Assembly: GCA_045604025.1 (NCBI GenBank)
Contig: JAZUNG010000027.1
Span: 1-63,834 of the forward strand
DNA from: Lachnospiraceae bacterium
GTDB taxonomy: Bacteria > Bacillota > Clostridia > Lachnospirales > Lachnospiraceae
DNA: 63,834 nt
Direction: 5' to 3'
Shown: positions 6,688-62,373 of the stretch, in pieces
Layout: every line of letters begins with the position of its first letter
Numbering within the stretch: the stretch's first letter is position 1
Notes under the pieces: generated by a model
The model's database searches: none
What the model was told of the DNA's origin: nothing
Seen by the model: only the letters and a program-made list of their open reading frames with translations
Translations under genes and position numbers: made by a program

Positions 6688-8391
6688 TTATTTATCTTTA
6701 TTGGCTATTTTATAGCGGTTGATAGCGCATATGATGGCGCGGAGCGGTGCCAGGTTGATATTGTGGCTCAAACCTACTCCAAAGTAATCCTTGCCTTCAT
6801 CATCACGGAGCTGAACGTATGCTACAGAGCGTGAGTCGGAGCCCTGTGTCAGAGCGTGGGACTTGTAGTCAACGAAGTTCAGCAGGTTCATCTTTTCGCC
6901 CTTGATGGCGTTGAAGAACGCGTCGATAGGTCCGTTGCCTTCTCCCTGAACATTGAAGAAAGTCTCTTCGTCCTTCTGTGATGTATGGGAGATGGTTCCG
7001 AAGAAGGTGACCACGCTGTGGCCGTTTACGGTCTCTTCATGGAATACATGCTTGACCATCTTGTAAGGTCGCTCGATGTCCAGGTATTCTTTCTCGAAGA
7101 GCTCGAGGATACGTGCGGGTTTGAGCTCTCGCCCTACATAATCGCTCTCCGCCTGGACCACGGCACCGAACTCGGGATGCATGGCCTTGGGCATATCGAA
7201 TCCGAACTTGTGGTTCATGATGAATGCAGCGCCGCCCTTGCCGGACTGGCTGTTGATACGTACAGGCTCGTACTCTCTGCCGATATCTTCGGGATCGATA
7301 GGCAGATAGGGTACCATCCACTTGTCATAACCGTGCTTCGTCATGTAGTTGAAGCCCTTGTTGATGGCATCCTGATGGCTGCCGGAAAATGCGGTAAATA
7401 CCAGGTCTCCGCTGTATGGCTGTCTTTCGGGAACGCGCATCTTGGTGCAGCGTTCGTACAGCTCGCGGATCCGGTCCATATGGGTGAAGTCAAGCTCGGG
7501 ATCTACCCCCTGAACGTACATGTTCATGGCAACAGTAATCATGTCAACATTGCCGGTACGCTCACCATTTCCGAACAGACACGCCTCGACTCTTTCGGCA
7601 CCTGCCAGAAGTCCTGCCTCTGTGGTTGCTACTCCGCATCCTCTGTCGTTGTGAGGGTGCAGCGAAATGATGGCGCGCTCTCTTCCGGGAAGGACTCTGA
7701 TGAAGTATTCCAGCTCATCCGCAAACTGATTGGGCATGCAGTTTTCCACGGTAGTGGGAAGGTTCAGGATGACCTTGTGCTCCTCGTCTGCATGGAGTGC
7801 GTCCAGAACAGCTGCGCATATCTCGGCGGCAGCGTCCATCTCCGTCCCCATGAATGATTCGGGAGAGTACTCATAGCGCAGATCCATGCCGGAAGCCAGT
7901 ACAGGCTGGGCCATCTCATAGATCAGCTCTGCGGCATCCACGGCGATCTTTTTGACGCCTTCTACATCGGTCTCGAAAACGACCTCTCTCTGCAGAGTGG
8001 AAGTGGAGTTGTAGAAATGGAAGATGACATGCTTTGCACCCTGGATAGCCTCGAATGTCTTGCGGATCAGATGCTCTCTGGCCTGGACCAGTACCTGGAT
8101 AGTGACGTCATCAGGGATATGACCTCCCTCGATGAGCTCGCGGCAGATCTCATAGTCGGTGTCGGACGCGCTGGGGAATCCAATCTCGACTTCCTTTACA
8201 CCGATCTCATCAACGAGTATATGGAACATATCCAGTTTTTCCTGCATGTTCATGGGATCGATCAGGGCCTGGTTGCCATCACGCAGGTCAACAGAGCACC
8301 AAATGGGTGCCTTGGTGATCTGATTGTCAGGCCATGTCCTGCCCTCTATCGGCTGCGGGATAAACGGGATATATTTTTCGTAACCCTTCAT
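6688..8391 (-). CDS. leuA: 2-isopropylmalate synthase (long LeuA form)
   Basis: ORF 6688..8412. The likely start is MKGYEKYIPF at 8391, with AAGGAGA upstream. Contains WCSVDLRDGNQALIDPM and HPHNDRGCGVA motifs. Confidence 0.9.
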   Translation of the reverse strand: MKGYEKYIPFIPQPIEGRTWPDNQITKAPIWCSVDLRDGNQALIDPMNMQEKLDMFHILVDEIGVKEVEIGFPSASDTDYEICRELIEGGHIPDDVTIQVLVQAREHLIRKTFEAIQGAKHVIFHFYNSTSTLQREVVFETDVEGVKKIAVDAAELIYEMAQPVLASGMDLRYEYSPESFMGTEMDAAAEICAAVLDALHADEEHKVILNLPTTVENCMPNQFADELEYFIRVLPGRERAIISLHPHNDRGCGVATTEAGLLAGAERVEACLFGNGERTGNVDMITVAMNMYVQGVDPELDFTHMDRIRELYERCTKMRVPERQPYSGDLVFTAFSGSHQDAINKGFNYMTKHGYDKWMVPYLPIDPEDIGREYEPVRINSQSGKGGAAFIMNHKFGFDMPKAMHPEFGAVVQAESDYVGRELKPARILELFEKEYLDIERPYKMVKHVFHEETVNGHSVVTFFGTISHTSQKDEETFFNVQGEGNGPIDAFFNAIKGEKMNLLNFVDYKSHALTQGSDSRSVAYVQLRDDEGKDYFGVGLSHNINLAPLRAIICAINRYKIANKDK

Positions 8392-8423
8392 AATAATAGC
8401 TCTCCTTTTCAAGGGGTTTATTC

Positions 8424-8452
8424 ATTTTAAGGATTGAAAAGGATATTGTCAA
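8424..8452 (-). promoter_or_regulatory. leuA promoter
   Basis: On the minus strand: TTGACA (8447-8452), 17-nt spacer, TAAAAT (8424-8429). The leader is about 26 nt, so there is no T-box. Confidence 0.6.
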
Positions 8453-8491
8453 GTGAGAAGGATAATTCACAAAATATCCCCAACAAGGTTC

Positions 8492-8520
8492 TTGAGACAA
8501 TTTCAGAAACCCTGTATAAT
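8492..8520 (+). promoter_or_regulatory. promoter of the 8528 gene (geometry implies a leaderless mRNA)
   Basis: TTGAGA (8492-8497), 17-nt spacer, TATAAT (8515-8520). The first plausible ATG (8528) lies 7 nt after the -10 element, and there is no Shine-Dalgarno sequence. Confidence 0.5.
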
Positions 8521-8527
8521 GTGCGTG

Positions 8528-11020
8528 ATGAGAAAGAAAAGACGTTCCACATATTCAACATATGCGCGCAGGAACTGGTTTTCCAGGAACAAGGTGCTGA
8601 TCATCATTGTCAGCACTCTTTTATTTCTGGCACTTGTGGCCGGAGGTGTCCTGTTCTTTCTGAATATGCAGAAGAGGCAGCAGGAGTCAGGGATCAAATA
8701 CGAGGCCATGAGATCTGCATCCATCCCGGTATTGTCCATGACATACAATGCCATGCAGGTCAATACGCTGCACGGCTATACACAGGAGATGGATATCCAT
8801 TATATCAGACACAATATCTATGTATTGGAAGACACCTATGATATCCCCATCACCGTATCTCTGTATGGCAACAGGGTCAATTCCATATCGTTCAAGGTAA
8901 TAGATGCCGAGGTAAACAATCTGATACAGAATGCCACGGTGGAGGACTATCAGACCTCTGATGACAAGCTCATATGCACGCTCAAGATCGACAATCTGAT
9001 AGATGAGGGCAGAGAGTATATCCTGGATGTGATCATCAGCACGGCCAGAGCAGACGAGATCCATTACTATACACGTATCAAGAGGGATGTCACCACGTCT
9101 CTTAAAGGGCAGATCGAGGCAGCCCTCAGATTCCACCAGGCTATCTATAATGCAAATGATGACGAGGTCAAGGCATATATCGTCAGCATGCTCGATACAA
9201 AATACTGGATGGATGACAACACTGATTTCAGCAATGTCAGCCTGTATTCTTCTATTTCCAGCGTGACCTGGGGCAAGATGAACGCACAGCTGGAGGGAGA
9301 TCCGGAGATAGAGATCCTGGATGTAGACGGCGAGCTGGGATATCTGCGGATCAACTATATCATGTCACGCGCTGCAGGAGAGGATACCGAATACTACAGA
9401 GTATCTGAGTATTACAGAATGAGGGTGGCAAATGAATATGCCTATATCCTGAATTATGAGAGGACCTGTGACCAGGTATTTGACCCGGAAGCCGCGGAAA
9501 CCGTCGGAACAAAATCTGCCAAGCTGGGAGTGATCAGCGACAAGGATATCTCCATGCTGTCCAATCTTTCCGGTACGCTGTCATGCTTCGTAGCCGACCA
9601 TACACTGTGGGCCATGGACACAGAGACCAAGACTCTGAAGAGGATATTCTCATTCTCATCCGGCTTCAACGATCTGAGAGGCAATTACAGCAAGCACAAT
9701 ATACGTATAGTCAATGTCTCTGACGAAGGAGACATCCAGTTTATCGTTTATGGATATATGAATGCCGGCCTGCATGAGGGCAAGGTCGGTATCGGTATGT
9801 ATACTTACCATGCAGATATAGAGGAGGTATCGGAGGAGATATTCATTCCGACCAATCTTCCGTATGAGATACTGAAGAATTCAGTCGGAAATCTCTTCTA
9901 TCTGAGCAGCAGCAACTACCTGTATATCATGATGGACCAGTACCTGTACAGGCTGGCTCCCGACAGCGATGAGGCTGTTCTGGTCACAGACGGACTGGTA
10001 GACGGTACATATATGATCCACTCTGAGGGCAAGCTGATCGCATGGCATGATGAGAGCAGGGTAAACGATGCAAAGAGTATCACAGTCCTCAACCTGGAAA
10101 CCGGGAAGAGCTATACAGTCAAAGCTGCAGACGGATGCTGCATCAAGGCACTGGGATTCCTGAATCAGGAGCTGGTGTACGGACAGGGCGAAGAAGGCAA
10201 TCTGTACGAAGCACAGTCCGGTCATGAGTACCTGCTGATGAGCGATATGTATGTCATAAATGACAGGCTGATCGTTGAGACCGAGACCAATGCAGGCGAC
10301 GGATTCTTCTATGATGCGTTAAATGAATATAACAGAGTAGTGCTGAAGAAGGTCATACGTACCAGAGACGGATTTGATAATTCGGATGACTACACCCTGT
10401 TTGCTGCAGAGCTGGAAGCATATCCTTCACTGGAGAAATTCACACAGTACGACGAAGTGAAAAAGACCGTATATCTGGTCAGATTTGCAGACAGTACGAC
10501 CACGGCAGGTGATCTGAAGATCAATGACGACGCAGTAGTCATGTTTACCAATGAGAAGACCATCGATATCAGAGATATGCTGGAAGACACCGGAAAGTAT
10601 TATGTATATGCTAAGGGTGAGGTTGTGGCTCTGATGGACAATCCTGCAGATGCGATCATCACTGCTTATGACCAGTGCGGAGTGGTCCTTGAGTCAGACG
10701 GAGCACTGTTCTACAAGAGAGGCCTGATGCCAGGTGAAGTGGAGCTGTCCAAGGTAACTGCAGATCTGGCTGTCGAGAAGATACGCAATAATGATATGAT
10801 CAATGTAACTGGTATTACATTGATGGAAGCGCTGTATTATACAGCGGCCAAGATCGCGTTTGCATGGGAATGGGACGGTACCACGTATCTGTTCCTGGGA
10901 TATGATTACAGTGACAATATCTTCATGATGGATGTGAATACAGGAGAGGAGATCGCGTTTACCTCTGCATATATAGAAGGCCTGATAGAGAATACCGGCC
11001 ATACTTATGTTGTGAAATAA
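8528..11020 (+). CDS. large membrane-anchored protein of unknown function
   Basis: ORF 8453..11020. I start it at [22 protein letters not shown], which is followed by one TM helix ([23 protein letters not shown]). I recognise no motif in the roughly 780-aa extracytoplasmic part. Confidence 0.6.
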
Positions 11021-47097: not shown

Positions 47098-48642
47098 ATG
47101 AAAAACGAAAGAGAGATTAGCCTCAAGGGTTTGGTCATATATATCCTTCAGCACTGGAGGAGCATCATAATCGGTATCATCATCGGCGGTCTGCTGCTGT
47201 TGGGATTTGGCTTCTACAAAGAAAGAAGCAGTGCTTCGAGTGCTGCGCTGCCTGATGATATTCAGACTCCCGAGCAGGTGCTGGAGGAAATGCTGGCAGC
47301 AGAGGCTGAAGAAGATGCTGTGCCTATTTCCGAGCTGGACAAGAGTACCGCTGCCACAGCGTATCTGAGTATGTCCAACTATTACGAAGGTGTTGACTAT
47401 ATGAACAGGACACCTTATATGCAGATCAACGGAGCATTTGCGCCACAGACTACTATCTCCGTATCGCTTCTTCCGTCAATAAATGATAAGAACTCCGCGA
47501 TCGTATATTCACTGAAGCAGCTGCTTCTGGGCGGAGATCTGCACAGCTATGTCAACAGCAAGGCCGGAACCAATATTGAAAACTGGGAGAGACTGATCTC
47601 AGTATCGGACAATATCTCGACTGAGGTTCCGTCTGTGAACGGAGTATTCACTATCACGGTGATCTATATCGATGAACAGGGCTGCAGGGATATCACCGAC
47701 AGTATTATTTCGTTTATTAATGAAAAGCAGCCGGAGCTGGCAGCTCTCTACGGAGACTTTGATCTGAATATCATCAACAATGGAACTGAGCTGGTGTACA
47801 GCAATACCATCCTGAATGCGCAGAGAGACAAGAAGACTTCCGTTCAGAACTACTACAGCACAGCGATCAATGCCATGTCGTCCTTTACAAAGAAGCAGCT
47901 GGATTATTATGACAGCCTGTTGGATAGTGCATCGTTCGATGCCGCTGACCAGAAGGCTTTGGTAAAGAGCCTCAGGGATTTCATAGAGGAAGACCGTGAA
48001 CTAAAGCATCAGGAGGCTATGCTGAAGGCACAGACCGCCATAGATGCTGCACTGGAGAAAGCCGCTTCTTCATCCTTAAACAAGAAGAAATATGTACTTA
48101 TTGGACTGCTTCTGGGTGCTTTCGTGATGGTTGTCATCCATGCGTGCAGATATATATTCGCAAACCGTACAGATCTTTATGACGATGTGCAGAACATCTA
48201 TGGTATCGCTGATCTGGGACATATCCCGGCAGACAAGCCGAAAAAGAAGATATTCTCATTTGTTGATAAATGGATTCTCAAATGGAGAAACCGCGCGTTC
48301 AGACAGGGCAGACACGAGGCTATCGGTGTCAGCGCAGCAGGCATAAATATGCTGGCTGAAAAGAACCAGCTGAATAATATAGCGATCGTATCCTGCGGCA
48401 GAGAGTGGACCGGCATGGAGCCTGCTGATTCCGTGATCGCAAATATCGGCGAGCTCACATCGAATTCAGTAGTACTTGAAAATGTTCTGGATGATCCCGT
48501 TGCCATGAACAAGATGGCATCTGCTGACGGAGTGGTGATCATAACCCGCACAGGAAAGACATTCAGAAGTGAAGTCGCCAGACTGGCGGATCTCATAACC
48601 AGGCAGGGCATAAAGATGCTCGGTGCAGTGACAGTTGACTGA
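47098..48642 (+). CDS. Wzz/CpsC-like chain-length determinant fused to a degenerate BY-kinase-like C-terminal domain
   Basis: Wzz-type N-terminus (ISLKGLVIYILQHWRSIIIGIIIGG) and a second TM helix at about residue 340. The C-terminus (IAIVSCGREWTG...ADGVVIITRTGKT...MLGAVTVD) follows the CpsD layout but lacks GxxGxGKS/T. Confidence 0.55.
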   Translation: MKNEREISLKGLVIYILQHWRSIIIGIIIGGLLLLGFGFYKERSSASSAALPDDIQTPEQVLEEMLAAEAEEDAVPISELDKSTAATAYLSMSNYYEGVDYMNRTPYMQINGAFAPQTTISVSLLPSINDKNSAIVYSLKQLLLGGDLHSYVNSKAGTNIENWERLISVSDNISTEVPSVNGVFTITVIYIDEQGCRDITDSIISFINEKQPELAALYGDFDLNIINNGTELVYSNTILNAQRDKKTSVQNYYSTAINAMSSFTKKQLDYYDSLLDSASFDAADQKALVKSLRDFIEEDRELKHQEAMLKAQTAIDAALEKAASSSLNKKKYVLIGLLLGAFVMVVIHACRYIFANRTDLYDDVQNIYGIADLGHIPADKPKKKIFSFVDKWILKWRNRAFRQGRHEAIGVSAAGINMLAEKNQLNNIAIVSCGREWTGMEPADSVIANIGELTSNSVVLENVLDDPVAMNKMASADGVVIITRTGKTFRSEVARLADLITRQGIKMLGAVTVD

Positions 48643-48663: not shown

Positions 48664-48696
48664 AAAAGTGAGGGGGAACTTCCCCTCACTTTTTTT
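48664..48696. terminator. bidirectional intrinsic terminator between the convergent Wzz-like and AAA+ genes
   Basis: AAAAGTGAGGGG-gaactt-CCCCTCACTTTTTTT. Confidence 0.85.
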
Positions 48697-48718: not shown

Positions 48719-50212
48719 TTATAGCTCCAGAGTATTGATCTCTTCCATCAGCTCGTTTTCACGCTCATGGAACATCAACTGATGGTCATGTGCAAAGTAC
48801 TCATCTGAGCCATATCTGCTGATGAATCTTGCGGAATAGTTGTTGATGGTCAGCTCTGTGACCAGGATGATCATCTCACGGCTGTCACCGTTTGCATCCA
48901 TGCCGAACATGCGCTCTGTAAAGCGGAACAGGTTGGCCATCTTCTCACCTGCATCGGCAGCCTGGTCCTTCAGTGCTGTTACGCGGCCTGAGAAATCAGC
49001 CCTGATATCATCGAATGATCCGAGCTCCTTCATTTCGTTCAGGATAGCGATAACACGGTTCAGTGTGAACAGGCGGTCTGGTGAAAGAGTAGATGAACGC
49101 TTGCCGGTGTCGATCTCTCTGTTCACATTTGCAATCTGTGCCTGTACGGCGTCGCTGACGGAAGAGCCGCCATCCAGAGCATTCTTGACGTCCTTCAGTC
49201 TCGGGACCAGATCGCTCATGGCATCTTCTTCAAAACATACAGCCTTGAGATAGCCTGTCAGTCCGTCCAGCAGCAGGCCTAAAAGGCTCAGACGCTCATC
49301 GGAGCCTGCCTGTTTTGCACGGGTCCTGATATCGACATCGAAGTCGCCTGCCAGGATCTTGTCAACCTGATAATCAGAGCGGTACTTGTTGAACAGATCG
49401 TAGTAAGCCGCGAAATCCCTGGCAATACGGTCGTTCTGCAGATACTGACGCACCAGCCTCTCCGTAACCTTGAACCCTCTCTTTTCATATATACGGAGCA
49501 TGCCGGACATATCGACCCATCCACGGGCTGTTACGAATGTCTTGCCGTCAGCCGTGGACTCAACCTTGTAGAAATCATTTTTCTTGATATCCAGATATGT
49601 GGTGATGGCAGGATGTACGCCGATGTTGACAGCATATTCCTTCCATACCGCATAGTCAGGCTCGATATCGATCCTCTTCAGTCTGTCCCAGGTAACGATA
49701 TCCAGCTCACGGACGGAGTTGTTGTACTCCGGAGGGTTGCCGGCAGTAACGACTATCCATCCCTTCGGAACCTGGTGCTTGCCGAATGTCTTGTACTGCA
49801 GGAACTGCAGCATAGCGGGAGCCAGAGTCTCGGATACGCAGTTGATCTCGTCCAGGAAGAGTATGCCTTCCTCAATGCCTGTATCGTTGATCATATCAAA
49901 AACGCTGGCGATGATCTCACTCATGGTATATTCGGAGACGCTGTATTCTTTGCCATTATAGACCTTGGTCGTGATATAGGGGAGACCCAGCGCACTCTGT
50001 CTGGTGTGGTGCGACATCGAGTAGCTGACCAGACCGACACCCAGCTCCTGGGATATCTGTTCCATAATGGCAGTTTTCCCGATCCCGGGAGGACCCATCA
50101 GAAAGACCGGTCTCTGTCTTTCGATAGGGATCTCATATTCGCCAAATTCATTCTTCGTGAAATAAGCAAATATAGCGTTGCGGATCTCTTCTTTGGCTTC
50201 CTTGATATTCAT
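48719..50212 (-). CDS. AAA+ ATPase (MoxR/AAA_5-like) with a long helical C-terminal extension
   Basis: Walker A LMGPPGIGKTA and Walker B ILFLDEIN, followed by VVTAGNPPEYN. 497 aa. Last gene of a three-gene operon. Confidence 0.8.
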   Translation of the reverse strand: MNIKEAKEEIRNAIFAYFTKNEFGEYEIPIERQRPVFLMGPPGIGKTAIMEQISQELGVGLVSYSMSHHTRQSALGLPYITTKVYNGKEYSVSEYTMSEIIASVFDMINDTGIEEGILFLDEINCVSETLAPAMLQFLQYKTFGKHQVPKGWIVVTAGNPPEYNNSVRELDIVTWDRLKRIDIEPDYAVWKEYAVNIGVHPAITTYLDIKKNDFYKVESTADGKTFVTARGWVDMSGMLRIYEKRGFKVTERLVRQYLQNDRIARDFAAYYDLFNKYRSDYQVDKILAGDFDVDIRTRAKQAGSDERLSLLGLLLDGLTGYLKAVCFEEDAMSDLVPRLKDVKNALDGGSSVSDAVQAQIANVNREIDTGKRSSTLSPDRLFTLNRVIAILNEMKELGSFDDIRADFSGRVTALKDQAADAGEKMANLFRFTERMFGMDANGDSREMIILVTELTINNYSARFISRYGSDEYFAHDHQLMFHERENELMEEINTLEL

Positions 50213-50234
50213 AAAAGCATCTCCTTATCTGTTC

Positions 50235-51722
50235 CTAAAAATCCAGTGCGTTTTCGAGTGCGTCGAAACGCTGCTGCATTTGAGTTTTTGCATCTGTAGT
50301 TACTTTCCGCTCGATCTTCGGGCGGATGCTGTTCTTGTAGCTGAGGAGCAGCGCGCTGGCACTGGCACGCGCACCGGCAGCAGCTCGTTCAATAAGTCTT
50401 TCTATATCCTCCTCCGGGATCAGACGATGGCTGCACATCCATCTGACGATCTCGTCGTTGTCAAGCATATCATCGTAGTAGTCGGTGACATGCGCACGGA
50501 TCTGGTCTGTATATTCCGCTGCAAGATATTTCTCGCAGGTGATACCCGCATTATCTGCCAGGATGAATCCGAGTGAAGCTCTTTTTGCTCCTATATTGGA
50601 TGATATATCACTGAACGGTCTGGTCGAGGTGAACGGGATCACGGTATGATCAGCGCTGAATGCCGGCGGATCATGCGGAGTGCAGAACCAGTGTATATCA
50701 AACGGCAGATCATCCGGAAGTCTCAGCCACATCAGAGCCCTGCAGTTTCTGAATGAACTCTCACCTATAGAGCGTACGCCATCCGGTATATAGAGCTCAG
50801 TCAGCTTTCCGCATCCTTCGAATGAAGACGACCCTAGGCTCACGAGAGTATCGGGGAAATCTATGCCGGTCAGCTCGCTGCATCTGTAGAATGCAGAGTC
50901 TCCAATGGATCTCAGTCTGGACGGCAGTTTGATACGGTCAAAGTTGCGGTTCTCATAGAAGCTTTCCGCACCTATCTCAGTCACCTCGTCCGGTATCTGT
51001 ATCTCCATCAGACCGCCCGGGAAGTACTTCAGACATGAGCCGTCACGGCTGTAGAGTACACCGTCGATACTGCGAAAGAACGGATTGTCCTGCGAGACCA
51101 TGATCCTCTTCAGGGAAGTGCATCCGGAAAATGCGTTGTTTTCCACAGAAGAGATATTCTCCTGGAAAATGATCTCCCTGAGGGAAGAACACCCCAGGAA
51201 CACACCTCTGACCAGAGCCTTGAGAGACTTAGGTAAGGTAATGGAGGTCAGGCCAGAACACATGGAAAATGCGCTGCGGTCTATCTTCTCCAGCGAATCC
51301 GGAAGTGAGACCTCATTCAGCCTGCGGCAGCAGGAGAATGCGAACTCGCCCAGATCTTTCAGACTGGAAGGAAGTACCAGACGGGTGAGCGCCGCGCATG
51401 GTGAAAATGCGCTCTGACCGATAGTTTCCAGTCCTTCAGGAAGGATCAGTTCGGTCAGTCCGCCGCAGCTTGCGAATGCATGGTTTTCTATAACCTTCAG
51501 ACCGGTTGAAAAAGATATCTTCTTCAGTTCCTGACATCCGAAGAAAGCAGATTCTTCGATCCTTTCAAGAGATGCCGGAAAACTGATCCCGGTCAGGTCT
51601 CTGCGTCCATAGAAGACCCTGGGTGCTATTTTGGTCACGCCATCAGGAATATTCACGTGCCCGCCTGCTCCTGTATATTCGATCAGGACTGAGTCATTTA
51701 TATTGAATTCTGTTCCTTGCAT
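50235..51722 (-). CDS. cytoplasmic BspA-type leucine-rich-repeat protein with an unknown C-terminal domain of about 150 aa
   Basis: About 13 repeats of the LRR_5 type (IPxxVxxIGxxAFxxCxxLxxI). No signal peptide or TM helix. Start MQGTEFNIND at 51722 after GGGAG. Confidence 0.75.
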   Translation of the reverse strand: MQGTEFNINDSVLIEYTGAGGHVNIPDGVTKIAPRVFYGRRDLTGISFPASLERIEESAFFGCQELKKISFSTGLKVIENHAFASCGGLTELILPEGLETIGQSAFSPCAALTRLVLPSSLKDLGEFAFSCCRRLNEVSLPDSLEKIDRSAFSMCSGLTSITLPKSLKALVRGVFLGCSSLREIIFQENISSVENNAFSGCTSLKRIMVSQDNPFFRSIDGVLYSRDGSCLKYFPGGLMEIQIPDEVTEIGAESFYENRNFDRIKLPSRLRSIGDSAFYRCSELTGIDFPDTLVSLGSSSFEGCGKLTELYIPDGVRSIGESSFRNCRALMWLRLPDDLPFDIHWFCTPHDPPAFSADHTVIPFTSTRPFSDISSNIGAKRASLGFILADNAGITCEKYLAAEYTDQIRAHVTDYYDDMLDNDEIVRWMCSHRLIPEEDIERLIERAAAGARASASALLLSYKNSIRPKIERKVTTDAKTQMQQRFDALENALDF

Positions 51723-51736
51723 AACTAACTCCCATC

Positions 51737-53065
51737 TTACAGTTCGTCTTTCTGCAGTGTCAGCCGGATACCCCACGCAGGGACAGCGGGCTGGCTGTAA
51801 TCATCATTGATAAATATAAACGCTCCGGGGAATGTCGGCATGGATGCCGGGAATGTCCCGGCAGAGTCCGTGACTGCTATCAGGCCCCGGAGGGTTCTGA
51901 ATGTCTTCTTTCTGAGCAGGTCTGCAGTGCGGTTGAATGCAGGCCTGAAATCAATGCCTTTGTATGGAGCCAGAGCAAGGTCGCTTACAAATGTCTCCAT
52001 CTCACTGTCTGAGGTGATCACGGCATGCTTAAGGGCAGCACCCTGGAAGTCCGCGTCTGGGTCATACGGTATGACCTTCGGTCCGGTGACAGCAGGGTAG
52101 AGTATATGCAGCCTGATCCTGGAGAAGAACGTTTCATTTGCATGCAGTATGTTCCAGGTGTTCAGAAGGAAGAGCTTGATCTTCTGAACGGGCATATCCT
52201 CAGTGACCAGCAATGCCATAGCCACATCCTTGATGCGGGCTGAATCCCTGTATTCGACAGGCTCTATGAGAGGCATCTTTCCGCCGGACATCTGCATCCC
52301 CAGACTGTACATGGTGAAGTCCCACTCATCAGGGTCGAGCTTCATACCGTCACCCTTGGCCAGGAGTTTGGCCAGGAATCCTGCATAGTCTGAAATCTCT
52401 CTGTTGACCTCCTGCAGGTTCAGCAGGACTGCGCCGGCGCGGCTTCCCTGCTGGCGGGTAAATGTCTCCATGTCTACCTGCATGCGTCTCGACACTCCGT
52501 TCCAGATGATGCTTAACGTCTCGCCCTGACGGGTCCATTTGCTGTGGTCATCTGCCCTGAACGTATCTTCAAGAAATTCCAGAGTCTCTTCGTCAGGCCT
52601 GTTCTTGGCATAGTATTTATAGATCTTCTCTGCGGTCAGCATGCCTGCATGCGCTTCCAGATCCGGATATACCTTTTCCTGACGCTGCTGCCTCAGGCAT
52701 TCGGCGGAACGCAGGCTCAGACCGGTCACCGTATACTCGCATGCGATATCACATGCCAGATTCCACAGCCTCAGATCGCAGCCTTCAGGTATGCAGATAT
52801 GCTGGAAGACGCAGTGAAATATCAGATGCAACAGATTTCTGGTCACGGAATTCTGCTCGGCCTTGTAGCTGAGCAGTATGTGACGGGGATCATAATACAT
52901 TCGGTATCCGTCAGTAGTCATGGTCCCGGTGTATGACGTGAACTCCAGCCTGTTCATGGCAATATCAAGAAACCTCAGGTTCACCATGAGTGTATCACGG
53001 GTATAGTTGAGGATCTGCATGGCCAGGGTATTGGCTTTTTCGTTTTGTTCTCTGATCTCAGTCAT
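51737..53065 (-). CDS. DUF2201-type protein (N-terminal putative metallopeptidase domain plus VWA-like domain) with degenerate motifs
   Basis: 442 aa. N-domain LLHLIFHCVFQH, where the family normally has HExxH. The C-terminal VWA-like region lacks an obvious DxSxS MIDAS motif. It is the usual partner of AAA_5 ATPases (family assignment from memory). Confidence 0.6.
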   Translation of the reverse strand: MTEIREQNEKANTLAMQILNYTRDTLMVNLRFLDIAMNRLEFTSYTGTMTTDGYRMYYDPRHILLSYKAEQNSVTRNLLHLIFHCVFQHICIPEGCDLRLWNLACDIACEYTVTGLSLRSAECLRQQRQEKVYPDLEAHAGMLTAEKIYKYYAKNRPDEETLEFLEDTFRADDHSKWTRQGETLSIIWNGVSRRMQVDMETFTRQQGSRAGAVLLNLQEVNREISDYAGFLAKLLAKGDGMKLDPDEWDFTMYSLGMQMSGGKMPLIEPVEYRDSARIKDVAMALLVTEDMPVQKIKLFLLNTWNILHANETFFSRIRLHILYPAVTGPKVIPYDPDADFQGAALKHAVITSDSEMETFVSDLALAPYKGIDFRPAFNRTADLLRKKTFRTLRGLIAVTDSAGTFPASMPTFPGAFIFINDDYSQPAVPAWGIRLTLQKDEL

Positions 53066-53166
53066 AATAATATTCCTGCTATTATTTTCTTATGTTTAGA
53101 GCGTAAATTCAAGCAGAAATTATTTTAACAGTTCCGGGCGGATGTATAAGATGCGGTCCGTGCAGG

Positions 53167-58922: not shown

Positions 58923-59082
58923 ATCTGTTTCCTCCCGTCTTAACTATACACTACGGTTTGAATGAAAAAAACTACAAACTTTTTGAAGAATTGTTGAAAA
59001 AATGGAATGAATTTGAAAAATTTAATCAAGATAAAAAAAGAGGAATATGTTAGAATGGCAAAAAGTTTTTAAAGAGGTGCTT

Positions 59083-60027
59083 ATGGATATTTCAAGATTT
59101 ACCGAATACAGAGACAAAGTAGTAGACAACTGCAGCAAGGTCATTGTAGGCAAGGATGACATCATCAAACTGGTGCTGACATCATTTATCTGCTCCGGAC
59201 ATGTCCTTCTCGAAGATGTTCCCGGAACCGGAAAGACCATGCTGCTCAGAGCGTTCGCAAAAACCATCGGCGGAGATTTTAAGAGGATACAGTTCACACC
59301 CGACCTGCTCCCTTCGGATCTGACCGGTATCAACTATTACAACCAGAAGTCAGGCGAGTTCGAATTCAGACCCGGCCCGCTCTTTACCAATATCGTCCTT
59401 GCTGACGAGATCAACCGTGCCACTCCGAGAACTCAGTCATCACTTCTTGAGGCAATGGAGGAGAGACAGATCACGGTAGACGGAGTGACCGCGAAGCTGG
59501 AAGAGCCGTTCATGGTCATGGCAACCCAGAACCCTATCGAGTCATTCGGAACATTCCCCCTGCCCGACGCGCAGCTGGACAGATTCTTCATGCGCCTTTC
59601 ACTGGGATATATGGAGAGAGAACAGGAGATGGCAGTCATAGCCAGAAAATCTACGCTGGCTCTGGTCGAATCTCTTGAACGCAGGGTGACGGATGAGGAC
59701 ACTGCTTTCGTACGCAGCGAGTATGTAAATGTCAAAGTGACCGATGAAGTCTGCGGATACATGATGGATATCATCGAGGCCACCAGGAAGAAGGGTGTAT
59801 TCTCATTGGGTGTATCTACCAGAGGTGCCATGGCCCTGTACAAGGCAGCGCAGGCTACAGCAGCTCTTTCAGAGCGTGATTATGTCATCCCCGAGGATGT
59901 CAAGTATGTAGCCCCATTCGTACTGTGCCACCGTATCAGAGCCGGCAGAAGTGACGGTTCCGATATTGATATGTTTAAGAGAAATGTCCTCGACAACGTG
60001 GCCGTTCCCAGAGAAAACGCAGAGTAA
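59083..60027 (+). CDS. MoxR-family AAA+ ATPase
   Basis: VLLEDVPGTGKTMLLRAFA, VLADEINRATPRTQSSLLEAMEE, QNPIE..GTFPLPDAQLDRF. Confidence 0.9.
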   Translation: MDISRFTEYRDKVVDNCSKVIVGKDDIIKLVLTSFICSGHVLLEDVPGTGKTMLLRAFAKTIGGDFKRIQFTPDLLPSDLTGINYYNQKSGEFEFRPGPLFTNIVLADEINRATPRTQSSLLEAMEERQITVDGVTAKLEEPFMVMATQNPIESFGTFPLPDAQLDRFFMRLSLGYMEREQEMAVIARKSTLALVESLERRVTDEDTAFVRSEYVNVKVTDEVCGYMMDIIEATRKKGVFSLGVSTRGAMALYKAAQATAALSERDYVIPEDVKYVAPFVLCHRIRAGRSDGSDIDMFKRNVLDNVAVPRENAE

Positions 60028-60034
60028 TATATAG

Positions 60035-61135
60035 ATGAAGATATTTATCATTGTCGTAGCGGTGATAGTAGTCCTGCTGATCCAGTTCATACTGGAGCGG
60101 AGAGCAAAGGGCGGCATCACTGCAGATATCAATCCGGAGACTACTGCGGTAGAACCCGGACAGAAGGTCAGGCTGACACTTAAGATTACCAATACCACTA
60201 TCCTGGTGCGTCCTTTTGTCCGCTATGCGGTACTCCTCCCGGACAGTATGCATCTGGTCTCAGAGCATGAGACCCAGACGGCGCCTCCTGATGCCTACAG
60301 GGTCATGGGGTCTGCTTTCCTGCTGCCCAGACAGACCATCGAAAGATATATCGATATAGAGATCACACGCCGCGGATACTATCGTTTCGGAAGCGTCAAT
60401 ATCGAGACCGGAGATTTTCTGGGATTCAAAGAGCACAGACAGGAATATATATTCTTCAGGTATATTTCCGTATACCCTGTCAGGATAGGCAGCGCAGAGT
60501 GCGAGGCCCAGGTCGGCGGTATCATCGGGGACTATTCGGTCAGAAGGTTCATATTTGAAGATCCGGTCCTGATCACTGGATTCAGGGAATACACCGGCAG
60601 AGAGCCCATGAAGGCTATCTCCTGGACACATAGTGCCAGGAGCGGTGAACTGATGGTCCGCAATTATGACCATACCGCCCAGATGTCGGTTTCCATAGTA
60701 CTGGATACGGACGGAGCAGAGGGCGATGTAGTCGAGCCTTGCTTTTCCGTGGCCAGAGAGGTTATCGAGCAGCTGAAGGAAAAGAACATAGAATACGATT
60801 TCTTCCTGAATGCCAGCATAGGCGGTGCGGGCAGCAGCCGTCATTACTATGCGAAAGGCATGGGAGACCGTCACTATACAGGCATACTCTTCCAGCTGGC
60901 AAATGCGCTGGATATCACCAGCTATTCCGCCGAGGAGCTGGCATACAGAGTCGCCGAAAAGCCAGGTGATGTCACAGGAGTTATCCTGATCACACCGTGG
61001 CGCGGCGAGAGAGCCGACCATCTGGTCAGCATTCTGTCAAAAAGGCCCATGACTCAGGTCAGAGTCATGTACGGCGAAGACTATGCAGAGACAACAGAAG
61101 ACGCCTACGACGCATATGAAAGGGAGGTAAGCTGA
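60035..61135 (+). CDS. DUF58 family protein (VWA-like partner of MoxR)
   Basis: N-terminal TM helix and the DUF58 core (FREYTGREPMKAISW). Position is directly after moxR. Confidence 0.75.
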   Translation: MKIFIIVVAVIVVLLIQFILERRAKGGITADINPETTAVEPGQKVRLTLKITNTTILVRPFVRYAVLLPDSMHLVSEHETQTAPPDAYRVMGSAFLLPRQTIERYIDIEITRRGYYRFGSVNIETGDFLGFKEHRQEYIFFRYISVYPVRIGSAECEAQVGGIIGDYSVRRFIFEDPVLITGFREYTGREPMKAISWTHSARSGELMVRNYDHTAQMSVSIVLDTDGAEGDVVEPCFSVAREVIEQLKEKNIEYDFFLNASIGGAGSSRHYYAKGMGDRHYTGILFQLANALDITSYSAEELAYRVAEKPGDVTGVILITPWRGERADHLVSILSKRPMTQVRVMYGEDYAETTEDAYDAYEREVS

Positions 61136-62373
61136 TGCCTGTAATGGTATTTCTTAAATTCGCATCAGAAGCCGCCCTGCTGCTGACCGCAGGCGGAGCG
61201 ATGGCCTTCCATTTTGGTGCAGGTGTATGGCAGATCGTAGTCACACTGATAGTGATCGGTCTTACAGAAGTGCTGTCGTATCTTATCTACACGAAGACAG
61301 GCGATGAGAGCAGGGCAGGACGGTTCCTCAGAGTGCTGGTAATGATCATACCATTTGTTTGTATACTGCTGCCCGGATTCAGTATCGCTTGGGCCGTACT
61401 GTGCGGCGTCATCTGGCTGTACGCGGTATTCCTGGCAGTTACCGCCAGATATATGTCAGAATCCGACCATTTCAAGACAGTGTTCAAGATTGCCATCGGA
61501 CTGACGGTAGGCGTGGTGATCATATTGCTGTTCGCATCTGCTACAGAAACATCGTTCTCGCTGACCATATTCTCGGGAATGGTATCTCTGGCGTGCTCCA
61601 TCCTGCTGATGAGATCGCTGAGACATGACATCTCGGTTTATTCAAGCGCATCGTTCCAGCTGATCAATGTGGGACTGGTGGCAGCAGTAGCTGCGGTCAT
61701 ACTCCTCCTCAGCAGCAATGTCGTGATCAGCAGCATACTGAGCGTCATCAAGACCGTATATACCTTCATTGCCGAGATCGCCCTGAAGGTGATCATGTGG
61801 CTTGTAGAGGGCATAGGCAAGTTCATCGAATGGCTGAAGACGATCATGACATTCCATGAGATCCCCCAGCAGGAACGAGAGGTTATTGAGCTCAATACCG
61901 ACAGCGGTGCAGGCGCATTCGGATATGAGGATGAGTATGTCGGCACTCCTCTGGGAGTGAAGATAGCAGTGATCGCGATCGCTGCGCTGGTGGTTGCATT
62001 CCTTCTGTTCCTTATCTTCAGATATATCGCAGGACAGAGAGCAGCCAGACAGAAGGGCGAGGCAGCAGGTGTATCAGACAGAGGGCCTCTTCGTCCCAGA
62101 CAGAGACGTGCAGAAGATGAACAGTCAGAGGTCCGCGGAGTCAGAAAGCAGTACAAACGTTATCTGCATTTCCTGAGGAAGGAGGGTATGTATATAGATC
62201 CTTCCGATACATCGGCGGATATTGTCCGAACGTCGCCTGAGCCATATCAGAGTCAAGAGGCAATAGAACTCAGAGGTCTGTATCTGGAGGCCAGATATAA
62301 CAACAGGGCGGACGAGCGTGCAGCCGACCGGGCGAAAGAATTGGTAAGGATAATAAGAAAAGGCGAGGCATGA
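61135..62373 (+). CDS. multi-pass membrane protein with a C-terminal DUF4129-like domain
   Basis: At least six TM helices. The C-terminus has RKQYKRYLHFLRKEG...DTSADI...LRGLYLEARY. Third gene of the MoxR operon. Confidence 0.6.
   Translation: MPVMVFLKFASEAALLLTAGGAMAFHFGAGVWQIVVTLIVIGLTEVLSYLIYTKTGDESRAGRFLRVLVMIIPFVCILLPGFSIAWAVLCGVIWLYAVFLAVTARYMSESDHFKTVFKIAIGLTVGVVIILLFASATETSFSLTIFSGMVSLACSILLMRSLRHDISVYSSASFQLINVGLVAAVAAVILLLSSNVVISSILSVIKTVYTFIAEIALKVIMWLVEGIGKFIEWLKTIMTFHEIPQQEREVIELNTDSGAGAFGYEDEYVGTPLGVKIAVIAIAALVVAFLLFLIFRYIAGQRAARQKGEAAGVSDRGPLRPRQRRAEDEQSEVRGVRKQYKRYLHFLRKEGMYIDPSDTSADIVRTSPEPYQSQEAIELRGLYLEARYNNRADERAADRAKELVRIIRKGEA

Follow-up and report, generated by a model that had tools for sequence, protein, structure and literature searches.

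The window analyzed here, a stretch of 63,834 nucleotides from the Lachnospiraceae bacterium contig JAZUNG010000027.1 (assembly GCA_045604025.1), carries on its minus strand a three-gene operon encoding a DUF2201-type protein, a leucine-rich repeat (LRR) protein of the LRR_5 type that lacks a signal peptide, and an AAA_5/MoxR-like ATPase. What is new here is a helical module of ∼65 residues that links the DUF2201/ATPase pair to signal-less LRR_5 proteins and to DUF6273 proteins. The operon is tentatively read, with a confidence slightly short of even, as a dedicated cytoplasmic AAA+/VWA remodeling machine with module-tagged repeat-protein partners. Its principal features are as follows.

51737..53065, minus strand: gene 1, DUF2201-type protein of 442 amino acids, zincin-like and helical at the N terminus and of VWA fold at the C terminus (Pfam and AlphaFold2 model)
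50235..51722, minus strand: gene 2, signal-less LRR_5 protein of 495 amino acids with ∼12-13 repeats of 23 residues and a 155-residue helical C-terminal domain (LRR_5, 6.5e-79)
50331..50525, minus strand: partner module of ∼65 amino acids, residues ∼400-464 of gene 2, AAEYTDQIRAHVTDYYDDMLDNDEIVRWMCSHRLIPEEDIERLIERAAAGARASASALLLSYKN (iterative hidden Markov model (HMM) search; the sole copy in the window)
48719..50212, minus strand: gene 3, AAA_5/MoxR-like ATPase of 497 amino acids (AAA_5, 1.5e-9, 38.4 bits against a cutoff of 22)

The Operon and Its LRR_5 Protein

The original prediction, made from the DNA sequence of the window, had described three tightly spaced minus-strand genes, and both the open reading frames (ORFs) and their spacing were confirmed, the intergenic gaps being 14 and 22 nt. 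For the middle gene, an ATG at 51722 that is preceded by GGGAG is favored as the start; an alternative GTG at 51776, taken from a mechanical ORF list, would overlap gene 1.

Gene 2 is, as had been proposed, built of LRR_5 repeats (∼13 in that description) and a helical domain in a protein devoid of a signal peptide or transmembrane (TM) helix. By a hydropathy heuristic, no signal-like or TM-like segment was found in any of the three operon proteins (19-residue maximum ≤1.45). The same holds widely, as 78 of the 80 complete LRR ORFs in related loci lack a signal peptide and none has a TM or anchor segment. A frequent N-terminal start of these LRR partners reads MSxxxDFVIENGVLxKYxGxGGDVVIP.

The usual site of action of BspA-type LRR_5 proteins is the cell surface, and the LRR matches of gene 2 include the adhesin families HupY/LrrG (HupY, 9.7e-32) and Gli349. 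In the window, the operon also has GH25, LytR_cpsA_psr, and methyltransferase genes as neighbors, a synteny common to the window and the loci L086 and L087. Both observations would suit a role for the operon in the maturation or unconventional export of surface LRR proteins, in which the ATPase and VWA protein would prepare tagged LRR proteins for display by unfolding, assembling, or passing them on. This explanation is nonetheless judged improbable. Besides the near-general lack of signal peptides and the complete lack of TM or anchor segments, the two LRR genes that do encode a signal peptide are devoid of the module, the envelope context is limited to close relatives and gives way elsewhere to unrelated housekeeping flanks, and no linked secretion component was present among the 845 neighboring ORFs that were clustered.

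A Module Common to the Partner Proteins

A neighborhood census of the pair yielded 80 loci that were kept. All derive from Clostridia/Bacillota bar one contig binned to Bacteroidaceae, and most are metagenome-assembled genomes (MAGs) from gut or rumen; isolates are represented by Pseudoflavonifractor capillosus An827 (L023) and Alkalibacter mobilis M17 DMB (L053). At least 597 species genomes carry a relative of the DUF2201-type protein (scan of one genome per species), and the DUF2201/ATPase family forms 1,321 clusters at 50% identity (E ≤ 1e-30). In 59 loci, the ATPase gene comes after the DUF gene in the same orientation. Clustering of the 845 neighboring ORFs left no more than three widespread families, namely LRR (106 genes in 62 loci), DUF (74), and AAA (57). 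LRR genes lie upstream of, between, or downstream of the pair, their number ranges from 0 to 5 with several in a row at some loci, and same-strand spacings of 3-60 nt are found in many loci.

The module was derived by iterative HMM search of the locus proteins, seeded with the 155-residue C-terminal domain of gene 2. It spans ∼65 helical residues, has the consensus EEIRAKYLKYIKRNKKKLLEEAIENDELLKLMLEEGLITKKDIDELIEYASKNGATEATAFLLEYKNK, and is without a Pfam model. Of the 80 complete LRR ORFs in related loci, 66 encode the module, and both of those that bear a signal peptide are without it. Four partners directly beside the pair carry the module together with DUF6273 instead of LRR_5 (L037 8318-9823, L060 6901-8103, L067 6570-7733, and L074 9813-11012). 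The module, and not the LRR, is therefore the common denominator of the partners.

Searches of a 5.8-billion-protein collection returned one match (P0119) for the 155-residue domain and none for an alignment of 54 modules. Accordingly, modules were tallied by iterating the HMM locally and by scanning DNA for a motif, and linkage was counted by tblastn and six-frame HMM scans. A module was located within 3 kb of 45 of the 59 complete pairs, and 50 of the 55 modules so placed were on the same strand. Module density was ∼0.93 per locus within the pair and 3 kb to each side, compared with 5 modules in the 242 kb farther out.

The association was recovered from the opposite direction in a reverse test that was blind to the pair, in which the back-translated motif A-x6-E-x2-A-x-L-[LM]-[DE]-[YF]-K-N was scanned over metagenome contigs. 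This gave 108 matches, 82 of which were true modules by HMM and 26 false. A DUF or AAA gene was present in the retrieved stretch for 35 of the 82 true modules (22 of 34 among loci of at least 8 kb) and for none of the 26 false matches. The claim that the triad is conserved as a unit is upheld by the presence of the pair and a partner within 3 kb in 45 of 59 cases, together with the fixed gene order in the window's subclade described below.

When the second half of the module was compared with consensus ankyrin by hhalign, the expected helix pair was aligned, with a probability of 9.9%, and some partners gave sub-threshold or borderline Ank matches in their N-terminal regions. An ankyrin-like nature of the module is thus to be taken as a lead and not as a result.

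The partners vary in architecture. In a second class, which begins MELxQEEKAARLQxAVINSS..., a helical N-terminal region of ∼250 residues with sub-threshold ankyrin matches is followed by the module and then by LRR_5. Genes of this class were observed directly after the DUF or AAA gene in L028, L034, L040, L042, L047, L049, L065, and L078, and as many as four paralogues stand in tandem between the two genes of the pair. At Anaerovoracaceae-type loci (L033, L046, L054, and L070; ∼9.9-15.3 kb), the pair has no adjacent partner and is followed by four conserved genes (∼390, 217, 600, and 341 amino acids) and then, ∼5 kb downstream and where the retrieved sequence ends, by an LRR gene; this arrangement could be a different, extended form of the operon. 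An orphan partner with borderline Ank_2, LRR_5, and the module was also seen at L142 3446-4963 (minus strand), between gatA (Amidase) and gatB and beside ligA, where it resembles a cassette inserted into a housekeeping operon.

Conservation of the Operon in the Window's Subclade

Eight further loci of the window's own subclade (L082-L089) were retrieved via close homologues of the DUF protein. The order DUF-LRR-AAA is kept in seven of the eight, and also in L001, L012, and L013 from the genome scan. Identities to the window proteins are as follows.

DUF2201 protein, eight subclade loci: 78, 63, 53, 53, 46, 43, 42, and 39%
LRR protein, eight subclade loci: 80, 69, 61, 59, 46, 39, 38, and 41%
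ATPase, subclade loci: 91-69%

As the LRR identities parallel those of the DUF2201 protein, the LRR protein diverges in this clade at the DUF2201 rate and is a stable orthologous partner and not a hypervariable one. The original prediction had also named a possible refutation, that the LRR gene might be a sporadic insertion; the fixed order in seven of the eight subclade loci shows that it is not.

The subclade is further distinguished by the state of the metal ion-dependent adhesion site (MIDAS) of the VWA half.

52190..52216, minus strand: ALLVTEDMP, residues 284-292 of gene 1, the MIDAS-equivalent stretch in which DxSxS has been lost (alignment of 74 relatives)

The absence of a DxSxS MIDAS motif from the window protein had been noted previously and is correct. 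The present alignment adds that this loss is confined to the small subclade of the window, as 71 of the 74 relatives have an intact DxSxS, whereas the window, L001, and L013 have lost it. The loss extends to L082-L089, so that all eight further subclade loci are without the MIDAS. The later TD of the VWA half is kept in the window protein (AVTDSAG). Column 57 of the module is acidic in 72% of modules from MIDAS-intact loci, compared with 0 of 12 from MIDAS-lost loci. This pattern fits a putative role of the column-57 residue as a MIDAS ligand.

Several observations count against a dedicated machine with module-tagged partners. No module gene was found within 3 kb of 14 of the 59 complete pairs, some of these being limited by contig ends. 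Orphan module genes occur away from any pair, so that linkage is strong and not exclusive. The locus L083 has the DUF-LRR arrangement but no ATPase in the following 1.5 kb. The MIDAS-lost loci form one clade, and the co-loss of MIDAS and acidic module residue therefore counts as a single evolutionary event. Finally, the AlphaFold2 model of the module-bearing C-terminal domain, from a two-sequence alignment, is of low confidence (predicted local distance difference test score (pLDDT) 50).

The partnerless pairs and the module genes elsewhere in the genome, together with the variable position and number of LRR genes, might also be explained if linkage were fortuitous, that is, if the pair served an unlinked client and LRR_5 genes, which are abundant and often duplicated, accumulated nearby. 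There is little to commend this explanation in view of the concentration of modules near the pair (∼0.93 per locus against 5 in 242 kb), the same-strand spacings of 3-60 nt in many loci, the occurrence of the module in partners that have no LRR, the fixed order and co-divergence in the window clade, and the retrieval of the pair by the reverse scan from module matches only.

At L083, the DUF and LRR genes occupy 7346-10391 and the remaining 1.5 kb of the contig holds an opposite-strand ORF; the motor gene may have been lost or relocated.

The DUF2201-Type Protein

Gene 1, for which 118 homologues were found, matches the Pfam family DUF2201_N (PF13203) at 1.2e-7, with 32.1 bits against a cutoff of 23.2. 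In the Pfam scan, PF09967 gave no match on the C-terminal half, but farther relatives do carry it. An AlphaFold2 model built from 27 homologues reached a pLDDT of 82, and a fold search with this model revealed that residues ∼277-437 resemble VWA domains in the PDB, including ITIH1, the Ku80 vWA domain, and integrin I domains. The full-length model resembles phage proteins described as “metallopeptidase/VWA-like”. Profile and single-sequence searches of gene 1 against PDB sequences gave no matches. The DUF2201 architecture assigned to this protein in the original prediction thus stands for DUF2201_N by HMM and for the VWA half by fold, whereas PF09967 itself went undetected by HMM.

52799..52828, minus strand: HLIFHCVFQH, the H80-x3-H84-x4-H89 motif of gene 1, in which Leu replaces the Glu of HExxH (alignment of 74 relatives)

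Eight residues, H80, H84, H89, W101, D106, E110, D172, and H174, are invariant in all 74 relatives, which were taken from genomes. By contrast, the position of the HExxH Glu is occupied by Ile, Met, Val, Ser, Leu, or Thr in 74 of 74 Clostridial relatives and never by Glu. As Glu is missing from all relatives while the other residues are invariant, the Glu-less state is constrained and clade-wide and does not reflect decay of one gene. HEVLH is retained in the homologues from phage Phosso and Oceanithermus, in which Asn occupies the position of the Clostridial E110. Homologues from Nostoc and Streptomyces likewise lack the HExxH Glu. In both organisms, plasmid-borne proteins of ∼600 residues are encoded after a MoxR ATPase (L220 3564-5336 and L221 3538-5367, respectively), with HCLLH and HALLH in place of HExxH and with DTSGS retained. 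Absence of this Glu from zincin-like domains is therefore a recurrent feature of distant superfamily branches. Thus, the missing Glu of HLIFH was correctly noticed in the window, but its interpretation as a private degeneration is not sustained.

A reading of the zincin-like domain as dead was considered and not adopted, the three His residues, D106, E110, D172, and H174 being invariant in 74 of 74 relatives. This invariance indicates that the domain is under constraint. The domain is predicted to bind metal but is probably not a standard peptidase. Any cleavage by it is conjectural; E110 might replace the Glu as the general base.

The AAA_5/MoxR-Like ATPase

The ATPase encoded by gene 3 has the following features, of which the motifs lie on invariant columns in an alignment of 46 sequences with a mean column identity of 58%.

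50072-50095, minus strand: Walker A, GPPGIGKT, G40-T47 (invariant family columns)
49841-49861, minus strand: Walker B, LFLDEIN, L118-N124 (invariant family columns)
48722-49315, minus strand: conserved helical C-terminal extension of ∼200 amino acids, residues ∼300-497 (family-wide conservation)

The description of an AAA+ ATPase with intact Walker A and B motifs and a C-terminal extension of ∼200 residues is borne out by these columns. Full-length identity among the ATPases of related loci is 48-91%. Profile and single-sequence searches of PDB sequences revealed no solved relative beyond Walker A similarity, the best single match being Midasin at the level of Walker A. Two further models scored below their cutoffs, namely bpMoxR (9e-5, 22.1 bits against 27) and nSTAND3 (17.1 bits against 27.2).

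Genomic Context and the Question of Defense or Phage Origin

The 113 ORFs that flank the clusters are a housekeeping mix of ABC transporters, FtsH, UvrC, URO-D, and spore germination proteins. Cas1 and reverse transcriptase gave one match each among them. No enrichment of integrases or transposases was found in the flanks, and no phage genes were present among the common flanking families. In PADLOC-DB v2, the ATPase returned no more than weak matches to IetA, DolB, and mad8, all of them over its Walker A region; neither the DUF nor the LRR protein returned any. PLSDB plasmids contained no close homologue and only distant N-terminal halves of MoxR proteins; at the three matches of which the annotation was examined, a neighboring DUF2201-type gene occurs in the opposite order, ATPase then DUF. 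A relative was present in 5 of 2.9 million viral contigs (IMG/VR). Nothing in these data points to a defense island or mobile element.

MoxR-vWA ternary conflict systems with variable third components are known in four types, VMAP, iSTAND, beta-propeller, and FtsH (Kaur et al. 2020, PMC7159879), and the triad could in principle be a fifth. In such an NTP-dependent conflict (immunity) system, the cytoplasmic LRR protein would sense invader proteins, the MoxR-vWA pair would set the threshold or act as the switch, and the zincin-like domain or an unlinked factor would be the effector. Outside the window clade, partner number (0-5), position, and architecture (LRR_5, Ank-like plus LRR, or DUF6273) do vary as they might for sensors, and orphan module genes lie like cassettes within housekeeping operons. 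Taken as a whole, however, the evidence makes this account unlikely, even if it deserves more credence than the other alternatives to a remodeling machine. The flanks are those of housekeeping genes with sporadic defense matches and no integrase or transposase enrichment, and the PADLOC matches are confined to the Walker A region. PLSDB plasmids hold no close homologue and viral contigs few relatives (5 of 2.9 million), no effector is recognizable, and the catalytic Glu is absent. Moreover, ATPase identities of 48-91% across families and the co-divergence of LRR with DUF fit vertical, constrained inheritance. For the same reasons (housekeeping flanks, no close plasmid homologue, 5 of 2.9 million viral contigs, and no effector domain), the conflict or defense role suggested in the original prediction was not supported.

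A phage-derived or prophage module, in which the pair would help to assemble virions or tails, was weighed on similar evidence; such a role has been proposed for a MoxR/VWA pair in Acidianus two-tailed virus and for AAA/VWA-like pairs in N4-like and other phages. Phage families are matched by both the ATPase (phrog_1297, 5.6e-39) and the DUF protein (phrog_1314), the full-length DUF fold resembles the phage proteins noted above, and GenBank “Bacteriophage sp.” contigs of human-faecal origin carry the pair. Such an origin is very improbable indeed, as cultured phages align with only the N-terminal 290 residues of the ATPase at ∼25% identity, IMG/VR is nearly devoid of relatives, the common flanking families include no phage genes, and chromosomal sites are conserved. 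A scan of viral contigs with the shorter motif E-x2-A-x-L-L-[DE]-Y-K-N gave 17 matches, none of which was a true module. The faecal records, being short and unannotated, may themselves be bacterial. They include MT835935.1, MT837836.1, MT837993.1, MT837937.1, and others (H1-H7 and H26-H33), in which the pair is of the Clostridial type and the ATPase is 45-59% identical.

Operon Boundaries and Neighboring Genes

A divergent promoter region and a bidirectional terminator had been proposed to delimit the operon. Matching signals were found at both ends by consensus scan only.

53119..53148, minus strand: putative promoter-like site TATACA-18-AATAAT, ∼50 nt upstream of gene 1 in the divergent intergenic region (consensus scan only)
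48664..48696, both directions: terminator-like site made up of a G+C hairpin (48672-48686) with A- and T-runs beside it (consensus scan only)

The runs on its two sides give the hairpin the look of a bidirectional terminator. In addition to the GH25, LytR_cpsA_psr, and methyltransferase genes, the window neighbors of the operon include an extracytoplasmic function (ECF) sigma factor with DUF4349. A 514-residue ORF at 47098-48642 (plus strand), previously taken for an envelope gene, is convergent with the triad and has no Pfam match at 1e-4; a 518-residue counterpart, also without Pfam matches, occupies the equivalent place in L086.

A second, classical MoxR operon is located at 59047-62373 (plus strand). 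It comprises an AAA_3 ATPase (8.1e-64), a middle protein of 366 residues without a Pfam match at 1e-4, and a protein of 412 residues with a weak DUF4129 match. Of the MoxR-DUF58-DUF4129 composition previously assigned to it, the ATPase is firm and DUF4129 weak, whereas DUF58 could not be confirmed. The same operon also lies near the triad in L083 and L087, and the two ATPase systems are therefore syntenic neighbors in this lineage.

Proposed Mechanism and Its Meaning

A client is gripped and pulled via the VWA domain in Midasin, CbbQ/CbbO, and other pairs of the MoxR-vWA kind. By analogy with these pairs, the AAA_5/MoxR-like ATPase would be the motor and the DUF2201 protein a VWA adaptor that also carries a metal-binding zincin-like domain. 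The signal-less LRR_5 protein would be the dedicated partner, recognized via the common ∼65-residue helical module. On this model, the adaptor would dock the module-bearing repeat protein, and the ATPase ring might then use ATP to remodel it by loading, releasing, or recycling the LRR solenoid and its bound cargo. Domain identities, gene linkage, the common module, and co-divergence are established, whereas the physical contacts, the direction of action, any cleavage by the zincin-like domain, and the cellular role are inferred.

In most relatives, docking could proceed via the MIDAS metal site and the acidic module residue. The Ku80 vWA domain binds peptide motifs, and a comparable mode may be envisaged for the window lineage. 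With the MIDAS lost and the module position non-acidic, docking there would have to be metal-independent, possibly in the manner of the Ku80 vWA domain.

A more ambitious proposal, for which the prospects are slim, is that the triad is a new and widespread surveillance or quality-control system of gut Clostridia. Interchangeable cytoplasmic binders that bear the helical module as a common handle (LRR_5, Ank-like, or DUF6273) would capture targets for the AAA+/VWA machine, in a Midasin- or NLR-like logic split over three polypeptides. It would then add a fifth type to the MoxR-vWA ternary systems, one with a new adaptor domain and possibly an immune function.

The family is very large, uncharacterized, and concentrated in gut and rumen Clostridia. 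The present finding gives a testable hypothesis, namely that the dedicated partners of the pair are signal-less LRR_5 proteins, the cellular role of which has been puzzling. A compact unnamed domain that marks these partners offers a concrete handle on two large sets of uncharacterized proteins. Should the system prove to be one of immunity or surveillance, the ternary MoxR-vWA theme would reach into a major group of the human microbiota, and bacteria would offer a case of LRR-based intracellular recognition. Should it prove to be a housekeeping remodeler, a large set of “cytoplasmic BspA-like” proteins would gain its first functional assignment.

Comparison with Known Systems

The original prediction knew of no described system with this composition, and the present searches agree with it, as PADLOC, Pfam architectures, and the searched literature contained none. 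The literature search covered DUF2201, COG3864/APE2220, LRR_5/AAA_5/DUF6273, and BspA-like proteins, and in it both the combination and the module were undescribed.

MoxR AAA+/VWA pairs include RavA-ViaA, CbbQ-CbbO, NorQ-NorD, and CoxD-CoxE, with Midasin as the fused eukaryotic form (PMC7159879). As in these pairs, the gene for an AAA_5-clade ATPase with intact Walker A and B motifs adjoins that for a VWA-fold protein, and the VWA adaptor likely grips a client for the ATPase. The triad differs in the extra ATPase extension of ∼200 residues, in the zincin-like domain on the VWA protein, and in the loss of the MIDAS in the window. Furthermore, its linked third component is a tagged LRR protein and not an enzyme to be matured.

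The two-domain architecture and the HxxxHxxxxH and W..(A/C)D motifs of gene 1 are those of DUF2201 proteins (PF13203 plus PF09967) from many phyla and phages. By contrast, the Clostridial clade lacks the catalytic Glu and has an invariant E110 in place of the Asn of the phage and Oceanithermus forms, and the window protein has no PF09967 match. The canonical DUF2201 pairs examined are arranged ATPase-then-DUF, whereas the triad family is arranged DUF-then-ATPase. LRR/module partners were seen only with the Clostridial DUF2201 family.

The combination of an ATPase, a vWA protein, and a variable, largely repeat-built third protein is shared with the MoxR-vWA ternary conflict systems, in which some vWA domains are also without MIDAS aspartates (PMC7159879). 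The triad departs from the four known types in having as its third component an LRR_5, DUF6273, or Ank-like protein with a module of its own. There are no linked effector domains or peptidase cascades, the context is one of housekeeping genes, and the hosts are gut and rumen Clostridia. To bpMoxR, the window ATPase gives a sub-threshold match (22.1 bits against a cutoff of 27).

With the surface proteins BspA, LrrA, and HupY/LrrG, gene 2 shares the repeat type. It differs from them in lacking a signal peptide, anchor, or TM segment (by the hydropathy heuristic), in carrying the helical module, and in belonging to an operon with a cytoplasmic ATPase and a VWA protein. The NTPase-plus-LRR logic invoked in the original prediction is a resemblance only. 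In contrast to NLR/STAND receptors, the ATPase is of the AAA_5 and not the STAND type, and the ATPase and LRR reside on separate polypeptides. The triad is not a catalogued defense system; by its ATPase clade and VWA fold, it is a member of the MoxR/VWA kind.

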